Shown one piece after another: positions 280-53,023 of a stretch of DNA of 64,000 bases. Below the pieces are notes generated by a model. That model had not been told where the DNA came from and ran no database searches. It worked only from the letters and a program-made list of their open reading frames with translations. The stretch lies in the NCBI GenBank assembly GCA_964539655.1, contig CAZIJH010000004.1, forward strand, positions 14,925 to 78,924, read 5' to 3'. A program made the translations under genes and the position numbers. The stretch is from an uncultured archaeon. GTDB taxonomy: Archaea > Aenigmatarchaeota > Aenigmatarchaeia > CG10238-14 > SCSR01. The number at the start of each line of letters is the position of its first letter. The first letter of the stretch is position 1.

Positions 280-431
280 ATGGGAATACTGACGTTTGTC
301 GTAGCCGTGATTCTGATTATATGGCTGCTGGGATTTGTTGCAAATATTGTCGGCGGCCTCATCCACATATTGCTCGTCATTGTTGTAGTGATTGTCATAA
401 TCAGGCTGCTTAGAGGGGAAAAGATTTTCTG
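280..431 (+). CDS. small hydrophobic membrane protein (lmo0937-like family, 50 aa)
   Basis: ORF not in the supplied track (<60 aa): MGILTFVVAVILIIWLLGFVANIVGGLIHILLVIVVVIVIIRLLRGEKIF. Pattern xIWLLGFxxxxxGGLIHxLLVxAxxxxIxxLxxGR matches the widespread lmo0937-type small membrane proteins, by recollection. Confidence 0.5.
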
Positions 432-434
432 AAG

Positions 435-650
435 GTGTCTGACATGTCTTTCTTCCGATATTTTTCCAATAGGAATATGCTGGCGTCCAGTTCCGAGTCC
501 AAAAGATCTTCCAGAAGAGCCTACCATCCTCCGTACAGCTGCCTGGGATGTAACTTGTATTTCGAGACAGAGTACCTTCTTAATTTGCACAAGGAACTAC
601 AGCATGGCAAACCGAGGAAGAGGAAAGAAGAATTCCAATATTCCAAATAG
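435..650 (+). CDS. small C2H2-type zinc-finger protein
   Basis: YSCLGCNLYFETEYLLNLHKELQH has exact C-x2-C-x12-H-x4-H spacing, followed by a basic tail (KPRKRKEE). Preferred over the overlapping 243..590 minus-strand ORF. Confidence 0.4.
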   Translation: MSDMSFFRYFSNRNMLASSSESKRSSRRAYHPPYSCLGCNLYFETEYLLNLHKELQHGKPRKRKEEFQYSK

Positions 651-767
651 GCTTTTATCCGAACGACACCAATTAGAATTGCCTTGCTCTAAAGCCTCTG
701 TTAAGTTTGCGAAAGCTTGCAGTGAGACAGAAGAACGGAGCGAGGCTATATTATTTTTAAAAAAATT

Positions 768-1316
768 TCATTTGGCAGCAACGTAAATTTTTCTCGGCCA
801 CTCTCCTCTGTCTGCTGGATCGTAAGGCAGTCCGCCACCTATGAAATGAGTTCTAACCTCGCACTTTTCAGCCGTTTCCAAGAGTGCCTTGTCAAACGAG
901 ACTATCGGCAACTTTTCATATTTGGCATGTAGGATCAATATTCTGTCAATCCTGCTTATCGGGTATTTTTCCAATTCTCTTCTCAGATCGCGTACGCCAA
1001 AATGATAATCGTTGTCGTGGTTCTGTTCGCAAGATACGAATCTGACAGAAGGATTGTCTAGCAAATTTTCCATTTTCTTTATATTTCCTCGTCTGTTAAG
1101 CAGTATGAGCTCCTGTAAATTTTCAGAATAGATTGTTTTCATCACGTTTGATTTCAGCCATTTTACGATTTTATTTCGGCTTATGTTCCAAAGAATGATT
1201 CGAGGTTCATTCAAGCCGTACATTATGACAGAAGTGTCGACTGCGTAGCCCTTTTCCAAATTTTTTTGGAGGGTCCTTGACAGTTTCGCTTTTTTCATCT
1301 CGCTGTAAATTGCCAT
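768..1316 (-). CDS. PIN-domain protein (putative nuclease)
   Basis: N-terminal VDTSVIM (first acidic residue) and C-terminal IVSFDKALLETAEK (the hhT/S-xD motif) are typical of PIN domains. Confidence 0.45.
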   Translation of the reverse strand: MAIYSEMKKAKLSRTLQKNLEKGYAVDTSVIMYGLNEPRIILWNISRNKIVKWLKSNVMKTIYSENLQELILLNRRGNIKKMENLLDNPSVRFVSCEQNHDNDYHFGVRDLRRELEKYPISRIDRILILHAKYEKLPIVSFDKALLETAEKCEVRTHFIGGGLPYDPADRGEWPRKIYVAAK

Positions 1317-1498
1317 CGATTATAAAAATATTTTAAGAGATTTAAGCTCCTTTAACGGACGCCGAAAATGTCGAGTATGAAGGAGATGAAAGCCGGCAGT
1401 CCCGAAGATATCGGATCATGTCCGCTGTTCTCCTAGGAGAAAATATAAAATGTTTTTTCATCGTTTGCCTGATCGGTCGTTCCCAATGAAAATCCTTG

Positions 1499-1798
1499 TT
1501 AAACTGTAATGTCAGGTTTCTCTTTTTTCCTGTAAAGAAAGCCGGATTTTTGCTCGATTGCCACAATGCCGTATTCTCCCAGTTTGTCTTGGGATCTGAT
1601 TTTTTGTAAAGTTGCCCTTACAATAGCCGGGTCGGCGCCTTCTATTGATCTGATAATGTCGATGCTTTTTACAGTTTTCCCCTGTCCGGTGAGTTCCACC
1701 AGCTTGTTGAAGACTTTTGTCTGTAACTGGTATTCCTTGCTCGCCGCCGATCTTTTCGATTGCAGTGCGAATTTCCTCTCGATCGCTTCCAAATACAA
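1499..1798 (-). CDS. hypothetical protein (possible winged-helix)
   Basis: 99-aa ORF, no recognisable motifs. Confidence 0.35.
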   Translation of the reverse strand: MYLEAIERKFALQSKRSAASKEYQLQTKVFNKLVELTGQGKTVKSIDIIRSIEGADPAIVRATLQKIRSQDKLGEYGIVAIEQKSGFLYRKKEKPDITV

Positions 1799-1837
1799 AT
1801 TTACCGGACAGAGAAAATTTTCGACTTTCTCTTCTAA

Positions 1838-2086
1838 CTAATCTTTAATAAGAAAGTCAATTCCATTTTCGTCAAACTCGTGCGCAATTTCGTTTGAAAG
1901 TCTCGAGCGCTGGGCGTTTAAAATAGAGTACGCTCCTTCTAAATAATGCGGAAGACCCATGCTCCTCAACAGGGGTTCGTAATTTTTAATTTTCTTTTCG
2001 ACTTGGGCGACTGAGTTTTGCAGAGAAAAATTAATTCGTTTGGATACCTCTTCTTTTACGACCTCGTTCCTCTTGAGTTTTACCAT
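1838..2086 (-). CDS. hypothetical protein
   Basis: 82-aa ORF, codirectional with its neighbours, no motifs recognised. Confidence 0.35.
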   Translation of the reverse strand: MVKLKRNEVVKEEVSKRINFSLQNSVAQVEKKIKNYEPLLRSMGLPHYLEGAYSILNAQRSRLSNEIAHEFDENGIDFLIKD

Positions 2087-2125
2087 GCTTTTTATAAAAA
2101 CAATTAAGGATTAAAACCCGTTGCA

Positions 2126-2833
2126 TCAAACAAACTTCTCAAGACCCGTCTTTGTCTTTTCCGTATCTATCACGACGATTCCCTGGTTCACCGGAAACGA
2201 GACGTTGACAACCGGAACCGAGTCGACGCGCGCCATATTGATTCCTTTGTGCGAATGTCCGTGGACAACAAGATTTGGTTTTCTCTTGATTATGACGTTC
2301 TCGTAAAGGTTGGATCCGAGAGAAGAATAGAAGTTCGGATTCTCTCCCCCGAGCGTCTTGAAAGTCGGCGCGTAATGGATAAGCAGTATTTTGAAGTTGG
2401 TATTCATCTTTTCGAGATTTTTGTCGACCAAATCGATTCTCTCGCGGAAAATATTTCCGATGTTCGGAACATTCGCAAGCTGCCACTGCGTCGGCCTTTC
2501 GAGGCTTCCGGTCGTTCCGAATATCCCGACGGATTTTTTGTTGATTTCAAGAACGGTGCTCTGGTCGTCCAAAAATTTTATCTCGCGGAATTTTCTTCTT
2601 ACCTCTTCCCGGATTTCGTCGAATTCGCTGTTCCCGAAACACGCGACAATCGGGCAGTTTATTTTTCCGAAAAGAGCGTTGTAAATCTTTTCATAATCGT
2701 CGACGCTTCCGCGGTGCACCATGTCTCCGGCCATCAGGAATAAGTCAGGTTTAATTGAGAAATTTTCAACCGCTTGGACGAACTGGTCGTAATATTTTGG
2801 AGAATGAACATCAGAGACAGCCGCAATTATCAT
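2126..2833 (-). CDS. metallophosphoesterase (calcineurin-like phosphoesterase)
   Basis: Motifs AVSDVHS, GDMVHRG, GNSEFD and VHGHSH match the conserved metallophosphoesterase metal-binding motifs. Confidence 0.85.
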   Translation of the reverse strand: MIIAAVSDVHSPKYYDQFVQAVENFSIKPDLFLMAGDMVHRGSVDDYEKIYNALFGKINCPIVACFGNSEFDEIREEVRRKFREIKFLDDQSTVLEINKKSVGIFGTTGSLERPTQWQLANVPNIGNIFRERIDLVDKNLEKMNTNFKILLIHYAPTFKTLGGENPNFYSSLGSNLYENVIIKRKPNLVVHGHSHKGINMARVDSVPVVNVSFPVNQGIVVIDTEKTKTGLEKFV

Positions 2834-5068: not shown

Positions 5069-5142
5069 GGACCCGTAGCTTAGCCTGGTGGAGCATCCGA
5101 CTGATAATCGGGAGGCCGAGAGTTCAAATCTCTCCGGGTCCA
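5069..5142 (+). tRNA. tRNA-Ile (anticodon GAU)
   Basis: GGACCCGTAGCTTAGCCTGGTGGAGCATCCGACTGATAATCGGGAGGCCGAGAGTTCAAATCTCTCCGGGTCCA has acceptor GGACCCG/CGGGTCC, anticodon loop CTGATAA and T-loop TTCAAAT. Confidence 0.85.
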
Positions 5143-5237: not shown

Positions 5238-6206
5238 TTGATGGTGAATATTACTAGCTTTGTTGTCGGTGCGAAGTGTTTTTTCGACGCTGATAAATCA
5301 GGAACAGATTTGGTCCCAAAAATTAATTCACTTATTGCGCAAAAGATGATTGGCAGAGGATTCTCGACAGATGACAATGTTGATTTGTTTCGAGGCATAC
5401 CAACTTTTATGATGCGATTCTACGCTAATCCAACTAAGCATAATCCTCCTCTTGTGATGAGAATTAAGAAGGGTCTCGGCATCATTAATCAGGAGGAATT
5501 AGACGATAAAGTCTTCTTTGATGCATTGAGTAGACTTGTTGATGAGCATCCACATAAGATATCATTCTCGATTAAAATCGGCCAGATTTCCAACAACAGG
5601 AATGGTTACCTGATAAAGATAGAAACTGAACCAGCAATAGTTGCAAAGAAGAGGAATTTGGGAATTGAACCGCGTGTAAATGCTACTCGTTACAACGAAA
5701 TTATCGACTATAACAAGAAACTTGTTCACGAAATAATCAATGAATTGGGGGCAGGCATTCTTGAAGAGCCTAAGGTGCTCGCGCCACTTGATAAGATATT
5801 ACCGGATAATTTGTTTGAAGAAAATTTCATGACAGATTTACCCAGAGAAGTAGCTGAATGTTTAACAGAGGTCAACAAATGTTTTTCGAATGATTGCTAC
5901 ATTGCGTCCTCAATTATGATACGAAAAGCATTGGAAGTTGCCGTTACCAAAAAACTCGATCAAGCGGGTCGGGGAAAGAAATTATTCGATGATAATGGAG
6001 ACGAGATTTCGTTGAAAAGAAAACTCAATCTATTACCAGAAGTTGCTCCCAATATCAAAAAAGATTTGGAAGCAATCAAGATAGTCAAATGGTTCGGAGA
6101 TAAGAGTGCACACAGTCCGAACAATCCTATTTTTGCAAAAGACATAGAACAAAACATCGTGCCGAAGATTAGATATTTCCTGATAAATCTAGGTTTAAAG
6201 AAATAG
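5238..6206 (+). CDS. protein with a C-terminal DUF4145-like domain (defence/Abi-associated domain family)
   Basis: The C-terminal ~110 aa (CYIASSIMIRKALEVAVTKKL...IKIVKWFGDKSAHSP...IVPKIRYFL) resemble DUF4145, which occurs at the C-termini of HsdR and Abi-like proteins. The N-terminal ~200 aa are unknown. Confidence 0.55.
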   Translation: MMVNITSFVVGAKCFFDADKSGTDLVPKINSLIAQKMIGRGFSTDDNVDLFRGIPTFMMRFYANPTKHNPPLVMRIKKGLGIINQEELDDKVFFDALSRLVDEHPHKISFSIKIGQISNNRNGYLIKIETEPAIVAKKRNLGIEPRVNATRYNEIIDYNKKLVHEIINELGAGILEEPKVLAPLDKILPDNLFEENFMTDLPREVAECLTEVNKCFSNDCYIASSIMIRKALEVAVTKKLDQAGRGKKLFDDNGDEISLKRKLNLLPEVAPNIKKDLEAIKIVKWFGDKSAHSPNNPIFAKDIEQNIVPKIRYFLINLGLKK

Positions 6207-6240
6207 AGACAACGCCGACTTCATTGTAATGTGTACATAA

Positions 6241-6347
6241 TTCCGCTAGAATAGCTAACTATTTATTTTTACACACACAATATTTCAAAACAAGCCGCAG
6301 ATTATGGCAAGAGACTTTAACTTAGGGTCGGTAACGCTCCGGGTCCA
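6241..6347 (+). repeat. conserved ~107-nt right-end block of cassette unit 1, ending in a copy of the tRNA-Ile 3' terminus
   Basis: attccgctagaatagctaactatttatttttac...atatttcaaaacaagcc.cagatt...ttaact.gggtcgg.aac.ctccgggtcca is near-identical to 6877..6984. The last 11 nt equal tRNA-Ile positions 5132-5142. Confidence 0.7.
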
Positions 6348-6391
6348 TAAATAACTTACGGGAGTAGAATGCCGATAGAATTAGTGTATAC
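6348..6391 (+). repeat. left-end block of cassette unit 2, homologous to 5143..5186
   Basis: See 5143..5186. Confidence 0.5.
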
Positions 6392-6437
6392 AAAAATAGT
6401 TGATTGCTTTATTAAGAGAAGTTTTTAAAAATTTAAT

Positions 6438-6845
6438 ATGGTAGATAGACAGAATATTAAACTCAATAATTTGATGTTTCTTGCTCTTGACCATGGTATA
6501 GATTCGATAAAAGCAGGTGGTCCATTAATATCTTTTGTAATTACAGAATCTAAAGGTAAACGCAATATCAAACGATTTGTGACCAAAAGATTAGAAGATG
6601 GTCAAAAAGAAGCAACACAATTTGTTTCTACATCAAAATCTAAAATAGACAGATACGCACTTGCTTATGACGGCTATGTAACAATAGAAAATAAAAAGTA
6701 TAGTGCTATAATTGTTCGGGCAGGAGAGCACGGAGATAAAGAATCAATGTTGATATGTCAAAGATATAGCCCAAAAAAATTTCTACACAAATTTGAAGTA
6801 ATAGGTAATCCAGCAATGATTGGAAATCAAAAAAATCTTCTTTAA
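6438..6845 (+). CDS. hypothetical protein (cargo of cassette unit 2)
   Basis: 135-aa ORF with no recognisable motif, lying between the repeat blocks. Confidence 0.45.
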   Translation: MVDRQNIKLNNLMFLALDHGIDSIKAGGPLISFVITESKGKRNIKRFVTKRLEDGQKEATQFVSTSKSKIDRYALAYDGYVTIENKKYSAIIVRAGEHGDKESMLICQRYSPKKFLHKFEVIGNPAMIGNQKNLL

Positions 6846-20061: not shown

Positions 20062-21009
20062 ATGAGAATTATTTTGAAAAAAGGTAAGCAAAAAGAACTG
20101 ATTGATTTAACCAAATCAAAATTATCTTTATCATGGTCAGAATTGGGAAGGCTCCTTGGAATTAAACCCAATTATTTGAGTGGTGATTTGCGATTTGAAA
20201 ATGTCACAATCAGCGATCAATTATATAAAAATTTGTCAAGAATGAGCGATGTTAATTTTGATAATTTCATTGAAAAAAAAGTTCCTAACAATTGGGGGCG
20301 AATAAAAGGAGGGAAGTTATCTACTCATAGACAGCGTCCTCGAAAGTTACTCATTAAACAACATTCTAGTAATCTTGCAGAAGCTATTGGTATAATTTTA
20401 GGTGATGGTAGTTTGTATAACAATAAAAAACATGGAATCAACCAATTAGTTGTAACTGGCCATATCAAAAATGATCAAATATATTTGTCTAAATTTGTGA
20501 AGCCGCTTTTTGAAAATTTGTTTAATTTAAAATTTAGTATTAAAAAAGATAACAAAAAACATGTAATAAGAATTTACAGCCAAAAGAAAGATGTTTTATA
20601 TACTTTAGAAAAACTTGGCATACCGATTGGAAATAAAATAAAGAATGATGTTGGAATACCGAATTGGATATTTTCGTCAAAAGATTTCGTTAAATCATGC
20701 ATACGTGGTATTGTCGACACTGACGGTTCTGTATTCCCAATAACTGGAAGAAACTATACATATGTAGAAATTACATCCGCTTGCAAAAATTTAAGAAAAT
20801 CTATAGACCAAAGCATGAAAATAATTGGATTAAAAACATCCAAATGGACCAAAAATGGAACTCCAAAAATTTATATAGCAAACAAACGAGATATTTCTCG
20901 CTATTACAATGAAGTGGGATTTAATAACCCATATCATAAAAATAGATTTAAGCTCCTATCGTCTAGTCCGGTCAAACAAAGCCGAAAGGACGCCGGGCTT
21001 TCGATCTAA
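20062..21009 (+). CDS. LAGLIDADG homing endonuclease, free-standing, with an N-terminal HTH-like domain
   Basis: Two LAGLIDADG motifs (AIGIILGDGSLY, IRGIVDTDGSVF) spaced ~110 aa apart. The ORF has no stop before 21009, so its last ~19 codons overlap the 5' part of the downstream tRNA. Confidence 0.7.
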   Translation: MRIILKKGKQKELIDLTKSKLSLSWSELGRLLGIKPNYLSGDLRFENVTISDQLYKNLSRMSDVNFDNFIEKKVPNNWGRIKGGKLSTHRQRPRKLLIKQHSSNLAEAIGIILGDGSLYNNKKHGINQLVVTGHIKNDQIYLSKFVKPLFENLFNLKFSIKKDNKKHVIRIYSQKKDVLYTLEKLGIPIGNKIKNDVGIPNWIFSSKDFVKSCIRGIVDTDGSVFPITGRNYTYVEITSACKNLRKSIDQSMKIIGLKTSKWTKNGTPKIYIANKRDISRYYNEVGFNNPYHKNRFKLLSSSPVKQSRKDAGLSI

Positions 21010-21079
21010 AAGCGAAAGCTTCGAAAAAAAAGATGAGAGAAGAAATCCGGCAACCCGGGTTCAAATCCCGGTGGGAGCA
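20952..21079 (+). tRNA. tRNA-Glu (anticodon UUC) with a ~41-nt anticodon-loop intron and extra nucleotides in the D-arm region
   Basis: Acceptor GCTCCTA/TGGGAGC+A, D-loop AGTCCGGTCAA, anticodon stem-loop CCGGG-CTTTCGA, then an insertion 21004-21044, then TCCGG, variable CAAC, and T-arm CCGGG-TTCAAAT-CCCGG. A T-run follows. About 12 extra nt between the D-loop and the anticodon stem are unexplained (possibly a second non-canonical intron). Confidence 0.55.
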
Positions 21080-28375: not shown

Positions 28376-29242
28376 ATGGAAAGGAAATTTTTCACTGACA
28401 TTTTTTCAGAAACGGAATCAAACGTGATAACGTTCGGCGTTCCGATAGGAAGGAAATCCAGGCAGTCTTTGTCTTCTATCCGCAACGTGAGCTGGTTCAT
28501 CGAACCTTTCGACATCGACAAGAAAAAAAATCTTATGGAAAATGTCAAAATTTTCGACAAAGGGGATATTGAAATTAAAAATTACGGCGAGATGGAAAAA
28601 GTTTCGGAAGCCGTGCGCGACATTGCGGGCAAAAATAAAATCCCGTTTGCGATCGGAGGCGGTCATCTCTTATCGTACTATACTGCAAAAGAGATGCCGA
28701 AAGATGCAAAGATCATTGTGTTCGACTGTCACGCGGACATGAAAGACGACTACATGGACGAAAAAATGGTTGATTTGGATTTCATTTCGGATGGCGCCGA
28801 GCTCAGTCCGAAGATGAACGACTCGGTTTGGTGCAGGCGGTTGAGCGAGAAAATCAATCCGGAAAATATTTTCCTGATCGGGCTGAGAACTTTTGACGAG
28901 GACGATTTGAAATACATGGAGGAGAAGAAAATTCATTTCGTGACTGCGTCCGACCTGAAGAAAAACATAAACGAAGTGAGGACCGCTCTCTGGAAATTCA
29001 CGGAAAATTCGAACGTTCACATCTCGCTTGACATGGATGTTTTTGATCCGTCGATCGCTCCTGCTGTCGATCATCCTGAACCGGGAGGGCTCACGTTCAG
29101 GGAATTCCAGAATCTTTTGCAGGACGTCAACGGAAAGATTGTCGGCATAGACTTATGCTGCCTGAAGCCGATTCCCGAAAACGAGGTTACCGAATTCTTG
29201 GCCGTACGTTCGGTTTTGGAAATCATGGGATTGGTCAAGTAA
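28376..29242 (+). CDS. arginase-family ureohydrolase (agmatinase-like)
   Basis: GGGHLLSY, DCHADMKDD and SLDMDVFDPSIAPAVDHPEPGGLT are arginase-family Mn-binding motifs. Confidence 0.75.
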   Translation: MERKFFTDIFSETESNVITFGVPIGRKSRQSLSSIRNVSWFIEPFDIDKKKNLMENVKIFDKGDIEIKNYGEMEKVSEAVRDIAGKNKIPFAIGGGHLLSYYTAKEMPKDAKIIVFDCHADMKDDYMDEKMVDLDFISDGAELSPKMNDSVWCRRLSEKINPENIFLIGLRTFDEDDLKYMEEKKIHFVTASDLKKNINEVRTALWKFTENSNVHISLDMDVFDPSIAPAVDHPEPGGLTFREFQNLLQDVNGKIVGIDLCCLKPIPENEVTEFLAVRSVLEIMGLVK

Positions 29243-29310: not shown

Positions 29311-29318
29311 GCGGGGGT
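29311..29318 (+). repeat. 8-nt copy (gcgggggt) of the 5' end of the downstream tRNA-Leu
   Basis: Identical to 30041-30048. Together they flank the ~720-bp LAGLIDADG gene segment. Confidence 0.4.
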
Positions 29319-29356
29319 ATAACAATTTAAATAATAAAAAAATAATAATAAACAAT

Positions 29357-30037
29357 ATGAATTTTCAAAAAACTGCAGAACTTGCAGAATTTGTGGCTGA
29401 CATTACCGGTGATGGTCATTTGCAATTTAATGAACATCGAGGAAATATTCAATTTACTTCAAAAAATCTATTTTCAATTAAAAATTTTAGAAAACTTTGT
29501 AAAAATTTGTTTGATACCGATACAAAATTAATGAAAATAAAGAAAGACGGCAAATCATTTACGCTTCGATATAGAACATATTTTTCTTCTTTTGCAATTG
29601 CTAGTGAATTAGTAAAATTAGGAGTTCCATTTGGGAACAAAACGAACAAAATTTTTAGTATACCCAATTGGATTTTGAAAGGAAATTCAGAACTCAAGAA
29701 AGCATATTTACGCGCATTCTATACTTGTGAAGGATCAGTTTATTGTACTAAAAATAAAGATAAACTGAGATGGAGGATAGAATTAGAACAATATAAAAAT
29801 GAAAAATTAAAACATAGAGGGAAAATTTTTATGAACCAGATAAAACATTTACTTGGAGATTTTGATGTTATAACATCACCAGTCAGATTTGGAAAGAAAC
29901 AGAAAAGAAAAGACGGATCATCTTCAATTGCATTGAAAATTGATATCGAAAAGTCATCATTTGAAAAATTTGCTAATAACATAGGGTTTAACGATAAGTT
30001 TAAGACTCAAAAATTACTAACTGCAATTGCAGAATAA
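29357..30037 (+). CDS. LAGLIDADG homing endonuclease, free-standing (paralogue of 20062..21009)
   Basis: Motifs VADITGDGHLQ and AFYTCEGSVY. The stop is 3 nt before tRNA-Leu. Confidence 0.7.
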   Translation: MNFQKTAELAEFVADITGDGHLQFNEHRGNIQFTSKNLFSIKNFRKLCKNLFDTDTKLMKIKKDGKSFTLRYRTYFSSFAIASELVKLGVPFGNKTNKIFSIPNWILKGNSELKKAYLRAFYTCEGSVYCTKNKDKLRWRIELEQYKNEKLKHRGKIFMNQIKHLLGDFDVITSPVRFGKKQKRKDGSSSIALKIDIEKSSFEKFANNIGFNDKFKTQKLLTAIAE

Positions 30038-30040
30038 TAT

Positions 30041-30126
30041 GCGGGGGTCAGATAGCCCGGTCAATTCTGCTGGCTTGAGGTGCCAGTCCTTTAGTAGGTA
30101 CGCGAGTTCGAATCTCGCCCCCCGCA
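30041..30126 (+). tRNA. tRNA-Leu (anticodon GAG), long variable arm
   Basis: GCGGGGG...CTGGC-TTGAGGT-GCCAG, a 14-nt variable arm, T-arm GCGAG-TTCGAAT-CTCGC, and acceptor CCCCCGC+A. Confidence 0.8.
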
Positions 30127-30144
30127 CTCTTATTTTCCGAAAAT

Positions 30145-30870
30145 CTAATGTTGCAAAACCTGCTCCCATGGGACATAGTTGAAATTCAGTTTCACAAACG
30201 AGCTTGATTTCTCGTCGAACATGTAGTGTATCAGCGAGCAGTTTTTGATGTATGTGTGATCGTTGTTAAACATTTCGACTGGAATATTTTCTATTTGTTT
30301 TACAAAAAGTTCGATTGGTTTGAGATGACTTACAAACAATAAATTTTTCCCTGCATATTTCGGAAATATTTCATTTGTGAAATTGAGAATTCTGATGCCA
30401 ACTTCTTCTGGGCTTTCGCTTTTTTCCCCAGGAGGTTTGTGCTTGTATCTGCCGATCTCTTTCTTTTTTGCCAAATGTTCTGGATACCTTTTTTCTATTC
30501 CCTTGTCGGTGAGTCTCTGCCATTCCCCGAATTCCCTTTCGCGCAATCTTTTGTCGAAAGATGTTTCTGGCATTGCGCATCCCAATTCGTACAATTGGCC
30601 AAGTATTATCTGCATCGTGTCGCGCGTCCTGCGATAAGGCGAACAAAAAATCGCATCAATTGGCGGGAATTTTTCTGCAATGTATCTGCCGGTAATTTGG
30701 GCCTGAGATTTTCCAATATCCGTCAAGCCAACCATTTCGTCTTCCTTGGCTATCTCAATTTCTTCCAGTCCAAGCTCTCTTGCCCTCATCCTTGCCTGGT
30801 TACCTTCCGAAAAGGCATGCCTTACTAGCAAAAGATTTTTCGGGCACGTGTTAGAATCTGACATATACAA
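30145..30870 (-). CDS. histidine phosphatase family protein (phosphoglycerate-mutase-like)
   Basis: LVRHAFSEGN (RHG catalytic motif) and RRTRDT. Confidence 0.7.
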   Translation of the reverse strand: MYMSDSNTCPKNLLLVRHAFSEGNQARMRARELGLEEIEIAKEDEMVGLTDIGKSQAQITGRYIAEKFPPIDAIFCSPYRRTRDTMQIILGQLYELGCAMPETSFDKRLREREFGEWQRLTDKGIEKRYPEHLAKKKEIGRYKHKPPGEKSESPEEVGIRILNFTNEIFPKYAGKNLLFVSHLKPIELFVKQIENIPVEMFNNDHTYIKNCSLIHYMFDEKSSSFVKLNFNYVPWEQVLQH

Positions 30871-52927: not shown

Positions 52928-53023
52928 CGCCCAGGATGGGATTTGAACCCACAAGAGCTTGCGCTCGCAGCGTTTCAGTAAATTTTTCCAGCGCTGTGCC
53001 ATACCGGGTTAGGCGACCTGGGC
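52928..53023 (-). tRNA. tRNA-Ser (anticodon GGA) with a ~12-nt anticodon-loop intron
   Basis: Reverse complement GCCCAGG...CAGCG-CTGGAA-[AAATTTACTGAA]-A-CGCTG, a long variable arm CGAGCGCAAGCTCTT, T-arm GTGGG-TTCAAAT-CCCAT, and acceptor CCTGGGC+G. Confidence 0.6.

Follow-up and report, generated by a model that had tools for sequence, protein, structure and literature searches.

A free-standing gene for a LAGLIDADG homing endonuclease stands directly upstream of tRNA-Leu(GAG) in the 64,000-nucleotide (nt) stretch of archaeal DNA analysed here (contig CAZIJH010000004.1; 'the window' throughout), and the 722-bp segment that carries it is probably (at odds we would put near 0.6) a minimal site-specific homing cassette, inserted between nt 8 and nt 9 of the tRNA gene and supplying a replacement 5′ exon. 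Coordinates of all features are collected in Table 1. The segment is bracketed by two copies of GCGGGGGT, the first 8 nt of the tRNA, which are the only occurrences of this 8-mer in the window (29311-29318 and 30041-30048); the repeat ends at 8 nt, the upstream copy (copy 1) being followed by A and the copy that opens the tRNA (copy 2) by C. The LAGLIDADG open reading frame (ORF) is the sole substantial ORF between the two 8-mers, its ATG lying 38 nt beyond copy 1 and its stop codon being separated from the tRNA by 3 nt (tat). In the tRNA itself GCGGGGGT runs straight into CAGATAGCC, with no intron at nt 8/9, and both ARAGORN and Rfam report an intact tRNA. GC (guanine plus cytosine) content is 25–30% along the bracketed 722 bp (28% overall), compared with 42–47% in both flanks. 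The ORF, the tRNA, both 8-mers and the 3-nt and 38-nt gaps are all where a first-pass annotation of this DNA had placed them, and the direct-repeat-bracketed segment that it estimated at about 720 bp measures 722 bp between the 8-mers.

Loci with and without the segment could be compared among relatives. A scan for the tRNA-Leu 5′ pattern, using one genome per species and allowing 0–30 nt after nt 8, recovered 18 loci, mostly from metagenome-assembled genomes (MAGs) of Candidatus Aenigmatarchaeota; the tRNA was contiguous in 18/18, and a LAGLIDADG gene was absent from 17/18. The exception, L030 (5136..5690, in a Woesearchaeota MAG), has a distant, apparently frameshifted LAGLIDADG gene that ends 17 nt before a contiguous tRNA-Leu(GAG), and no upstream copy of the 8-mer is present at this locus. 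The first-pass annotation had proposed comparison of orthologous tRNA-Leu loci, and syntenic loci free of the segment were indeed found: in L017, L024/L026, L025 and L032 an ortholog of the window's arginase-family gene is followed by tRNA-Leu(GAG) within 5–19 nt, without the 722-bp segment. The cassette-free tRNA-Leu(GAG) of the L017/L025 type reads GCGGGGGTCCGATAGCC.... L013 is syntenic but filled; its upstream 8-mer is found 16 nt beyond the stop codon of the arginase-family gene, the site at which the tRNA starts in the empty loci. Presence and absence at this one genomic site are distributed across different species: L027, the closest relative by arginase identity (62%), has no endonuclease, and the more distant L013 (42%) is filled at the corresponding site. 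Between the window and L013 the endonuclease shares 59% identity and the arginase-family gene 42%. In L027 a 507-aa ORF of unknown function and host-like GC (309..1829) occupies the endonuclease's place between the arginase gene and tRNA-Leu.

Taken within the window alone, the 8-nt repeat is weak evidence, two or more copies being found in 17/100 dinucleotide shuffles; it becomes significant because it recurs in related loci and covaries with the tRNA. The tRNA's own first 8 nt recurred upstream of the ORF in 10/10 tRNA-Leu loci of the endonuclease family, 28–69 nt before the mapped ORF start, and the copy was exact in nine, with one mismatch in L038. Per-locus shuffle P was ≤0.0015 in the exact-match loci tested (L010, in which the upstream DNA is too short and the copy runs off the contig end, stood outside this test). 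Given this fixed placement and these P values in relatives, chance recurrence of the 8-mer, the explanation that the first-pass annotation had seen as the danger to its own reading, does not hold. Moreover, the repeat tracks the tRNA: L057 carries GCAGGGGT at both sites, and the Arg-type locus L063 has GCCCCGAT against GCCCCGGT, a change of sequence with the tRNA that rules out copy 1 as a fixed, cassette-borne motif. In the Cys subfamily a decayed upstream copy (GCGGTGGT, GCGTGCGT or GCGGTGAT) is found at the corresponding position. In an alignment of eight leaders, G1 of the upstream copy is the exact point from which the loci resemble one another, the DNA further upstream being unrelated, and a TATA-like box (these boxes were identified by eye) lies at a matching position in all eight, 24–30 nt before the ATG. 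A longer imperfect repeat (19–42 nt) upstream of both 8-mers was rejected by shuffle-tested global alignment in eight loci (P 0.32–0.95).

L039 has two tandem upstream copies of GCGGGGGTA (at ~1446 and ~1473) besides the tRNA's own copy. In L040 (~2203) the 5′ exon of a tRNA-Cys is the Leu-like GCGGGGGT (G5 opposite U68) in place of the GCGGAGGT of other Cys loci; it might be a trace of cassette-mediated exon transfer between tRNA species.

The same position of the tRNA is the site of an intron in most relatives. In 21 family loci the tRNA contains an insert of 12–23 nt exactly after nt 8, often alongside other introns; this mini-intron is present in all nine other family tRNA-Leu loci and absent from the tRNA of the window. 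Across the 21 loci, tRNA nt 3–6 pair with the 4 nt preceding the last 2 intron nt in 82/84 cells (72 of them Watson-Crick), compared with 36–66 paired cells in controls in which either side of the register was slid by 1–3 nt, and compensatory exchanges (G-C, A-T, C-G, T-A) occur at the four helix positions over several acceptor sequences. The helix is flanked by bulges of 3 nt, one made up of nt 7-8 with the first nt of the intron and the other of the intron's last two nt with nt 9, the inner hairpin covaries (ACAGT/ACTGT, GCAG/CTGC, ACAT/ATGT, GTAG/CTAC), and folds of single sequences broadly agree with a bulge-helix-bulge model, of the relaxed type, the outer helix being weak or absent. ARAGORN detected 1/21 of these tRNAs before removal of the intron in silico and 20/21 after it, starting at the predicted nt 1, and once spliced the sequence is that of the contiguous tRNA-Leu genes elsewhere, GCGGGGGT-C-GGATAGCC. 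Judged by this pairing, the insert is a bulge-helix-bulge-type tRNA intron, as predicted from its DNA. Its distribution follows that of the endonuclease: the 8/9 intron was found in 9/11 LAGLIDADG-linked tRNA-Leu genes, compared with 0/17 unlinked ones (Fisher P 8e-6). The window copy, on the same comparison, is the apparent derived state, from which the mini-intron would have been cleanly lost. The 'regenerated intact tRNA copy' of the first-pass annotation is therefore an apt description of the window, where the tRNA is contiguous, but not of most relatives, where it is split by the mini-intron.

Association with tRNA genes is a property of the endonuclease family as a whole. Fifteen homologs were found among 5.8 billion proteins, and loci added by a metagenome scan brought the total to 31 distinct evaluable family loci. 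In 28–29 of these 31 the gene adjoins a tRNA for Leu, Cys or Arg (24 loci recognised by acceptor/T-arm scan, four more after in-silico intron removal and one more, L060, by eye), and the linked gene is invariably 5′ of the tRNA and on its strand. The first-pass annotation had suggested a search for further copies beside other tRNAs, and this outcome favours its reading. Standard tools detected almost no tRNA beside family genes; it was direct reading of the DNA that revealed the inserts. Protein subfamilies follow tRNA identity (Leu-GAG, Leu-CAG, Leu-CAA, Cys-GCA, Arg-UCU), and the tRNAs called after intron removal include Leu-GAG (6), Leu-CAG (2), Leu-CAA, Cys-GCA (4) and Arg-UCU. A search of viral contigs with the family profile came back empty, and a viral origin was rejected on that ground.

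The encoded protein matches Pfam LAGLIDADG_3 (E 1.2e-7, 32.3 bits against a cut-off of 22.5) and has two LAGLIDADG motifs, VADITGDGH (D19) and YTCEGSV (E125), each closing on an acidic residue; TGDGH (D19) and EG (E125) are invariant across 15 homologs. Its top NCBIfam match is the endonuclease part of the RtcB intein (NF038162, E 1e-20), and its top PDB sequence match is the Tli VMA intein (E 1e-5). An AlphaFold2 model built on the 15 homologs (predicted local distance difference test score, pLDDT, 93.5; predicted template modelling score, pTM, 0.91) has two alpha-beta-beta-alpha-beta-beta-alpha halves with their elements in the expected order, a pseudo-dimeric fold. The best Foldseek matches were the TliVMA intein, PI-PfuI, I-Tsp061I, I-DmoI and I-SceI, and all 23 PDB fold matches at E ≤ 1e-3 have the LAGLIDADG fold (homing endonucleases, bI3 maturase, WhiA). 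By family and by confidently modelled fold the window protein is a LAGLIDADG homing endonuclease, presumably able to cleave DNA. It is under purifying selection (ratios of non-synonymous to synonymous divergence, dN/dS, of 0.09–0.28, with dS above 1 against every relative). No Hint domain was found in the window protein by Pfam or NCBIfam, and no group I intron matched in Rfam at gathering threshold, tRNAs being the sole Rfam matches in the window. A group I intron in the tRNA gene was rejected, there being no covariance-model match, and the 38 nt upstream and 3 nt downstream of the ORF being too short for a ribozyme. Lacking a Hint domain and room for a ribozyme, the gene is free-standing in the window: the ORF is embedded in neither intron nor intein, and sits between the orphan 8-mer and a contiguous tRNA.

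From these patterns we infer a mechanism in which the cassette would both disrupt the tRNA gene and mend it. The ancestral, empty locus would have consisted of a promoter followed by tRNA-Leu. The enzyme would cut cassette-free tRNA genes near nt 8/9, and repair of the double-strand break from a filled allele would copy the cassette in after tRNA nt 8, homology being provided on the right by the tRNA body and on the left by nt 1-8 together with the upstream flank. Native nt 1-8 would be left stranded upstream as the orphan copy 1 (29311-29318). The cassette would bring the LAGLIDADG gene, a TATA-like promoter of its own and a new nt 1-8 (copy 2), the last of which would join the remainder of the tRNA and keep an essential gene functional; in most relatives the mini-intron between the fresh 5′ exon and nt 9 would be removed by the archaeal splicing endonuclease. 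Re-cutting may be blocked by the mini-intron or, in the window, perhaps by a change in the D-stem, which is A10/U25 in the window tRNA and has G or C at position 10 in relatives. The TATA-like box would drive a shared transcript, the tRNA probably being co-transcribed with the endonuclease mRNA and freed by RNase P. The suggestion in the first-pass annotation of a mobile cassette that targets a tRNA gene and regenerates it gains support from the empty syntenic loci and from the association with tRNAs, both of which are consistent with mobility.

Several observations weigh against this mechanism. LAGLIDADG enzymes leave 4-nt overhangs and no duplication arises in classical homing; to account for the 8-nt repeat one must further assume either that the cassette carries a replacement exon or that one junction is made by end-joining. 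Synonymous sites are saturated, and at such divergence a neutral scar is expected to decay (0.4^8, ~7e-4 per pair), yet copy 1 is intact in nine tRNA-Leu loci; it would have to be either selected or re-made from the recipient's exon at each invasion. The empty and filled loci belong to different species and are not alleles of one population with identical flanks. Intron boundaries were set by eye before pairs were counted, and the samples compared for association with the 8/9 intron were drawn from different collections and are not phylogenetically independent. The 8/9 intron is lacking from the tRNA in seven family loci, the window included, which means that it is not required for immunity. 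Finally, L053 and L056 are family loci without a downstream tRNA. In L053 (= L054) a GCGGAGAA motif and then a TATA-like box are found upstream of the ORF, and L056 is positioned just past the 3′ end of another tRNA; these two may be rearranged or scattered copies.

Among other explanations, one would have the gene encoded within an intron. Copy 1 would then be the true 5′ exon, behind the native promoter, and everything from 29319 to the 3′ splice site would be one large bulge-helix-bulge intron at nt 8/9, copy 2 and the mini-intron providing a second, local choice of 5′ splice site; the endonuclease mRNA would be the intron RNA after excision, perhaps in circular form, as for archaeal rRNA introns with I-DmoI-type genes. 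That copy 1 occupies the native site of the tRNA 5′ end, stops exactly at the intron position, could form the 4-bp helix with the 3′ part of the intron and is conserved better than a neutral scar should be all fit such an arrangement, as does L001, in which similarity between copies 1 and 2 reaches a few nt into the intron. In the window, however, there is no 3′ splice motif and copy 2 is contiguous with nt 9, which makes the gene free-standing by any definition. GCGGTGGT, the upstream copy of the tRNA-Cys subfamily, would form mismatches both in the helix and at acceptor position 5, no helix beside copy 1 is available for the inner stem, and clean loss of the mini-intron alone, as in the window, is what one would expect were copy 2 the exon in use. 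An intron-encoded gene is possible for the relatives and does not apply to the window, and overall we regard it as unlikely. About equally unlikely is a domesticated, immobile DNA- or RNA-binding LAGLIDADG protein, a WhiA-like regulator or maturase-like helper inherited vertically with its tRNA, for which the 8-mers would be binding sites or operators. Strong purifying selection over a long divergence, a weak WhiA_N match, the presence of WhiA and bI3 maturase among the fold matches and the correspondence between subfamilies and tRNA identity are all compatible with this. Nevertheless, WhiA and maturases often lose their catalytic acids, and here both are invariant; the gene is patchily distributed and missing from the closest relative, its GC is 28% against about 45% in the host, and the window and L013 share more identity in this protein (59%) than in the adjoining arginase-family gene (42%). 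Nor would an operator be expected to change with the tRNA and to decay in the Cys subfamily, as the upstream 8-mer does.

The remaining explanations fare worse. Integration into tRNA genes, with a direct repeat of tRNA sequence left behind, is known from archaeal integrative elements, the Caldiarchaeum tRNA-Thr locus is a precedent (PMC3293823), and in L012 a tyrosine-integrase gene (Phage_integrase, 1628..2797) lies directly 3′ of the endonuclease-linked tRNA-Leu, so that the 8-mers might be read as att sites, or as a target-site duplication, in the remnant of an integrase- or transposase-borne element. This is very improbable: in more than ten loci the repeats nowhere enclose an integrase or a transposase, terminal inverted repeats are absent (29311-29330 compared with 30020-30048), no family match was found in viral contigs, and 8 nt is far below the length of att cores, which for SSV1 is 44 bp as cited in PMC3293823. 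The tRNA-Leu of L012 may have been hit at both ends by different mobile elements. Least credible of all is a coincidental repeat beside an ordinary stray endonuclease gene that happens to adjoin a tRNA; the shuffles of the window alone would permit it, but it is refuted by the presence of the arrangement, at a fixed distance and covarying with the tRNA, in every family tRNA-Leu locus, and by its significance under shuffling in the exact-match loci tested.

Table 1. Positions, within the window, of the cassette at tRNA-Leu(GAG) and of the second LAGLIDADG gene with its tRNA.
Feature	Position	Strand	Details
Copy 1, duplicate of tRNA-Leu nt 1-8	29311..29318	+	GCGGGGGT; orphan; left edge of the unit conserved between loci
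AT-rich cassette leader	29319..29356	+	TATA-like box TTTAAATA at 29326-29333, ~28 nt before ATG
Inserted segment between 8-mers	29319..30040	+	722 bp; 730 bp counted from copy 1 (29311..30040)
Free-standing LAGLIDADG endonuclease gene	29357..30037	+	226 aa plus stop; 28% GC
Copy 2, nt 1-8 of functional tRNA-Leu	30041..30048	+	GCGGGGGT
tRNA-Leu(GAG), contiguous	30041..30127	+	ARAGORN; Rfam gives 30041..30126 at 45.9 bits
Second LAGLIDADG gene	20062..21009	+	315 aa; Pfam; last 58 nt overlap tRNA
Hidden tRNA-Glu(UUC)	20952..21079	+	D-loop insert of ~12-15 nt and 41-nt anticodon-loop intron; acceptor/T-arm scan

The AT-rich leader is a putative archaeal promoter for a leaderless or short-leader mRNA. 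Close to the other end of the ORF, the invariant codons of its C-terminal K..KLL (AAAAATTACTAA) lie 20–33 nt before tRNA nt 1, both in the window (30000..30040) and in the 3′ ends of homologous ORFs, and AAAAATTACTAA could conceivably double as a TATA-like promoter of the tRNA. The locus is flanked upstream by the arginase-family gene, which ends at 29242, and downstream by a histidine-phosphatase gene on the opposite strand (30145..30870).

The window contains another LAGLIDADG gene beside a tRNA. The first-pass annotation had pointed to such a copy (20062..21079), and it was confirmed, its partner proving to be a tRNA-Glu(UUC) disrupted by two inserts. This tRNA was missed by both ARAGORN and Rfam, and was called as tRNA-Glu(ttc) by ARAGORN once the D-region segment had been removed in silico; at E ≤ 1, Rfam gave only chance-level matches around the second ORF. 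The second protein is a distant relative of the first (E 8e-17 with the first-family profile) and is one of a large DPANN family numbering at least 150 proteins. At the homologous loci L068, L069 and L072 the ORF likewise ends inside the 5′ end of the tRNA, and L072 has a 23-nt upstream copy of the 5′ part of its tRNA (21/23 nt, P below 0.001), which ends where the D-loop insert begins. No significant upstream copy of the tRNA-Glu 5′ end was found for the second ORF in the window (P 0.48). From these alignments, a second LAGLIDADG family seems to follow a similar logic at another intron position. As ARAGORN missed 20/21 of the linked intron-bearing tRNAs, and both it and Rfam missed the tRNA-Glu of the window, the tRNA complements of DPANN archaea are likely to be under-counted near such cassettes.

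The arrangement resembles several known systems in part. Collaborative homing, in which a free-standing homing endonuclease acts with an ORF-less intron, occurs in cyanophage psbA and in T4-type phages. There, as here, the endonuclease gene lies beside the interrupted gene, and an ORF-less intron at a fixed site is co-inherited with it; the present case differs in its archaeal host, its tRNA target, the duplicate of the 5′ exon upstream and its intron, which is a protein-spliced bulge-helix-bulge intron in place of a group I ribozyme, and cutting at the intron insertion site is here putative. With the rRNA-intron-encoded enzymes I-DmoI and I-Tsp061I the window protein shares a monomeric two-domain LAGLIDADG fold (Foldseek E 2e-9 to 4e-9), an archaeal host and a tie to a stable-RNA gene and to bulge-helix-bulge splicing; in contrast to theirs, its gene in the window lies outside any intron, its partner is a tRNA rather than an rRNA, and its sequence is closer to intein endonuclease domains. 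Its best matches in sequence and fold (NF038162; 7qsu, 1dq3) are indeed the endonuclease domains of archaeal inteins (RtcB, RFC and VMA inteins; PI-PfuI), from which it is distinguished by having no Hint or splicing domain and by being a stand-alone 226-aa ORF with its own start and stop.

The nearest precedent is found in integration into tRNA genes. At the Caldiarchaeum tRNA-Thr locus a 5′ fragment is followed by a 1.8-kb recombinase element and then by a tRNA that has an additional intron (Sugahara et al. 2012, PMC3293823); there, and in integration of the SSV/pNOB8 type, as here, a 5′ fragment and a mobile element precede a reconstituted tRNA with a gained intron, the gene being restored by a copy from the element. 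The window segment differs in having no integrase or recombinase, in being ~0.7 kb long with one LAGLIDADG gene, and in a repeat of 8 nt that ends at the intron site. Transposition of tRNA introns has been described in Thermoproteales (Fujishima et al. 2010, as cited in PMC10714607). Those introns too are short, non-canonical and of the bulge-helix-bulge kind, at one position across tRNAs (here nt 8/9, in Leu, Cys and Arg), but whereas no protein agent is reported to have been identified there, a nuclease gene is here physically linked to the intron. The known archaeal LAGLIDADG genes cited in PMC3293823 and PMC6125680 sit in rRNA introns or inteins, and in the literature searched, outside which most subscription journals fell, no LAGLIDADG gene was described as a neighbour of an archaeal tRNA gene or as linked to a bulge-helix-bulge intron in a tRNA. 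What appears to be new, as far as can be read from DNA, is a free-standing and putatively active homing endonuclease partnered with a protein-spliced tRNA intron and a duplication of the 5′ exon.

How archaeal tRNAs came by introns at odd positions, orphan fragments and split genes is a long-standing question, for which published models invoke integrating plasmids and viruses or an unexplained transposition of introns (PMC3293823; PMC10714607). Here a nuclease gene is tied, physically and statistically, to one intron position over three tRNA identities, with the displaced 5′ exon still visible, and the question becomes testable with one protein and a few DNA substrates. One could go further and suppose, at rather less than even odds, that disruption of tRNA genes in DPANN archaea is driven generally by LAGLIDADG cassettes, each cutting an intact gene at a fixed position, installing itself with a replacement 5′ exon and, where the cut was made, a protective mini-intron, and leaving an orphan fragment behind. 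Were this so, the way in which non-canonical tRNA introns are gained and spread would be explained at the level of DNA, as would orphan tRNA fragments and possibly the first steps towards split tRNAs, and the window would hold two instances of it, at nt 8/9 (Leu/Cys/Arg) and in the D-loop (Glu-type tRNAs). Should the target be 15–20 bp of a tRNA gene, the family would also be a source of natural meganucleases with new specificities.

Two further tRNA loci of the window were noted in passing. On the minus strand, the tRNA at 52928..53023 is interrupted by ~22 nt in its anticodon loop or close to it; it was found by Rfam (41.9 bits) and missed by ARAGORN, and no LAGLIDADG gene adjoins it. A region of low GC (34–38%) with two ORFs (322 and 135 aa), at 5238..6845, lies directly 3′ of tRNA-Ile (5069..5142) and may be another insertion at a tRNA gene.

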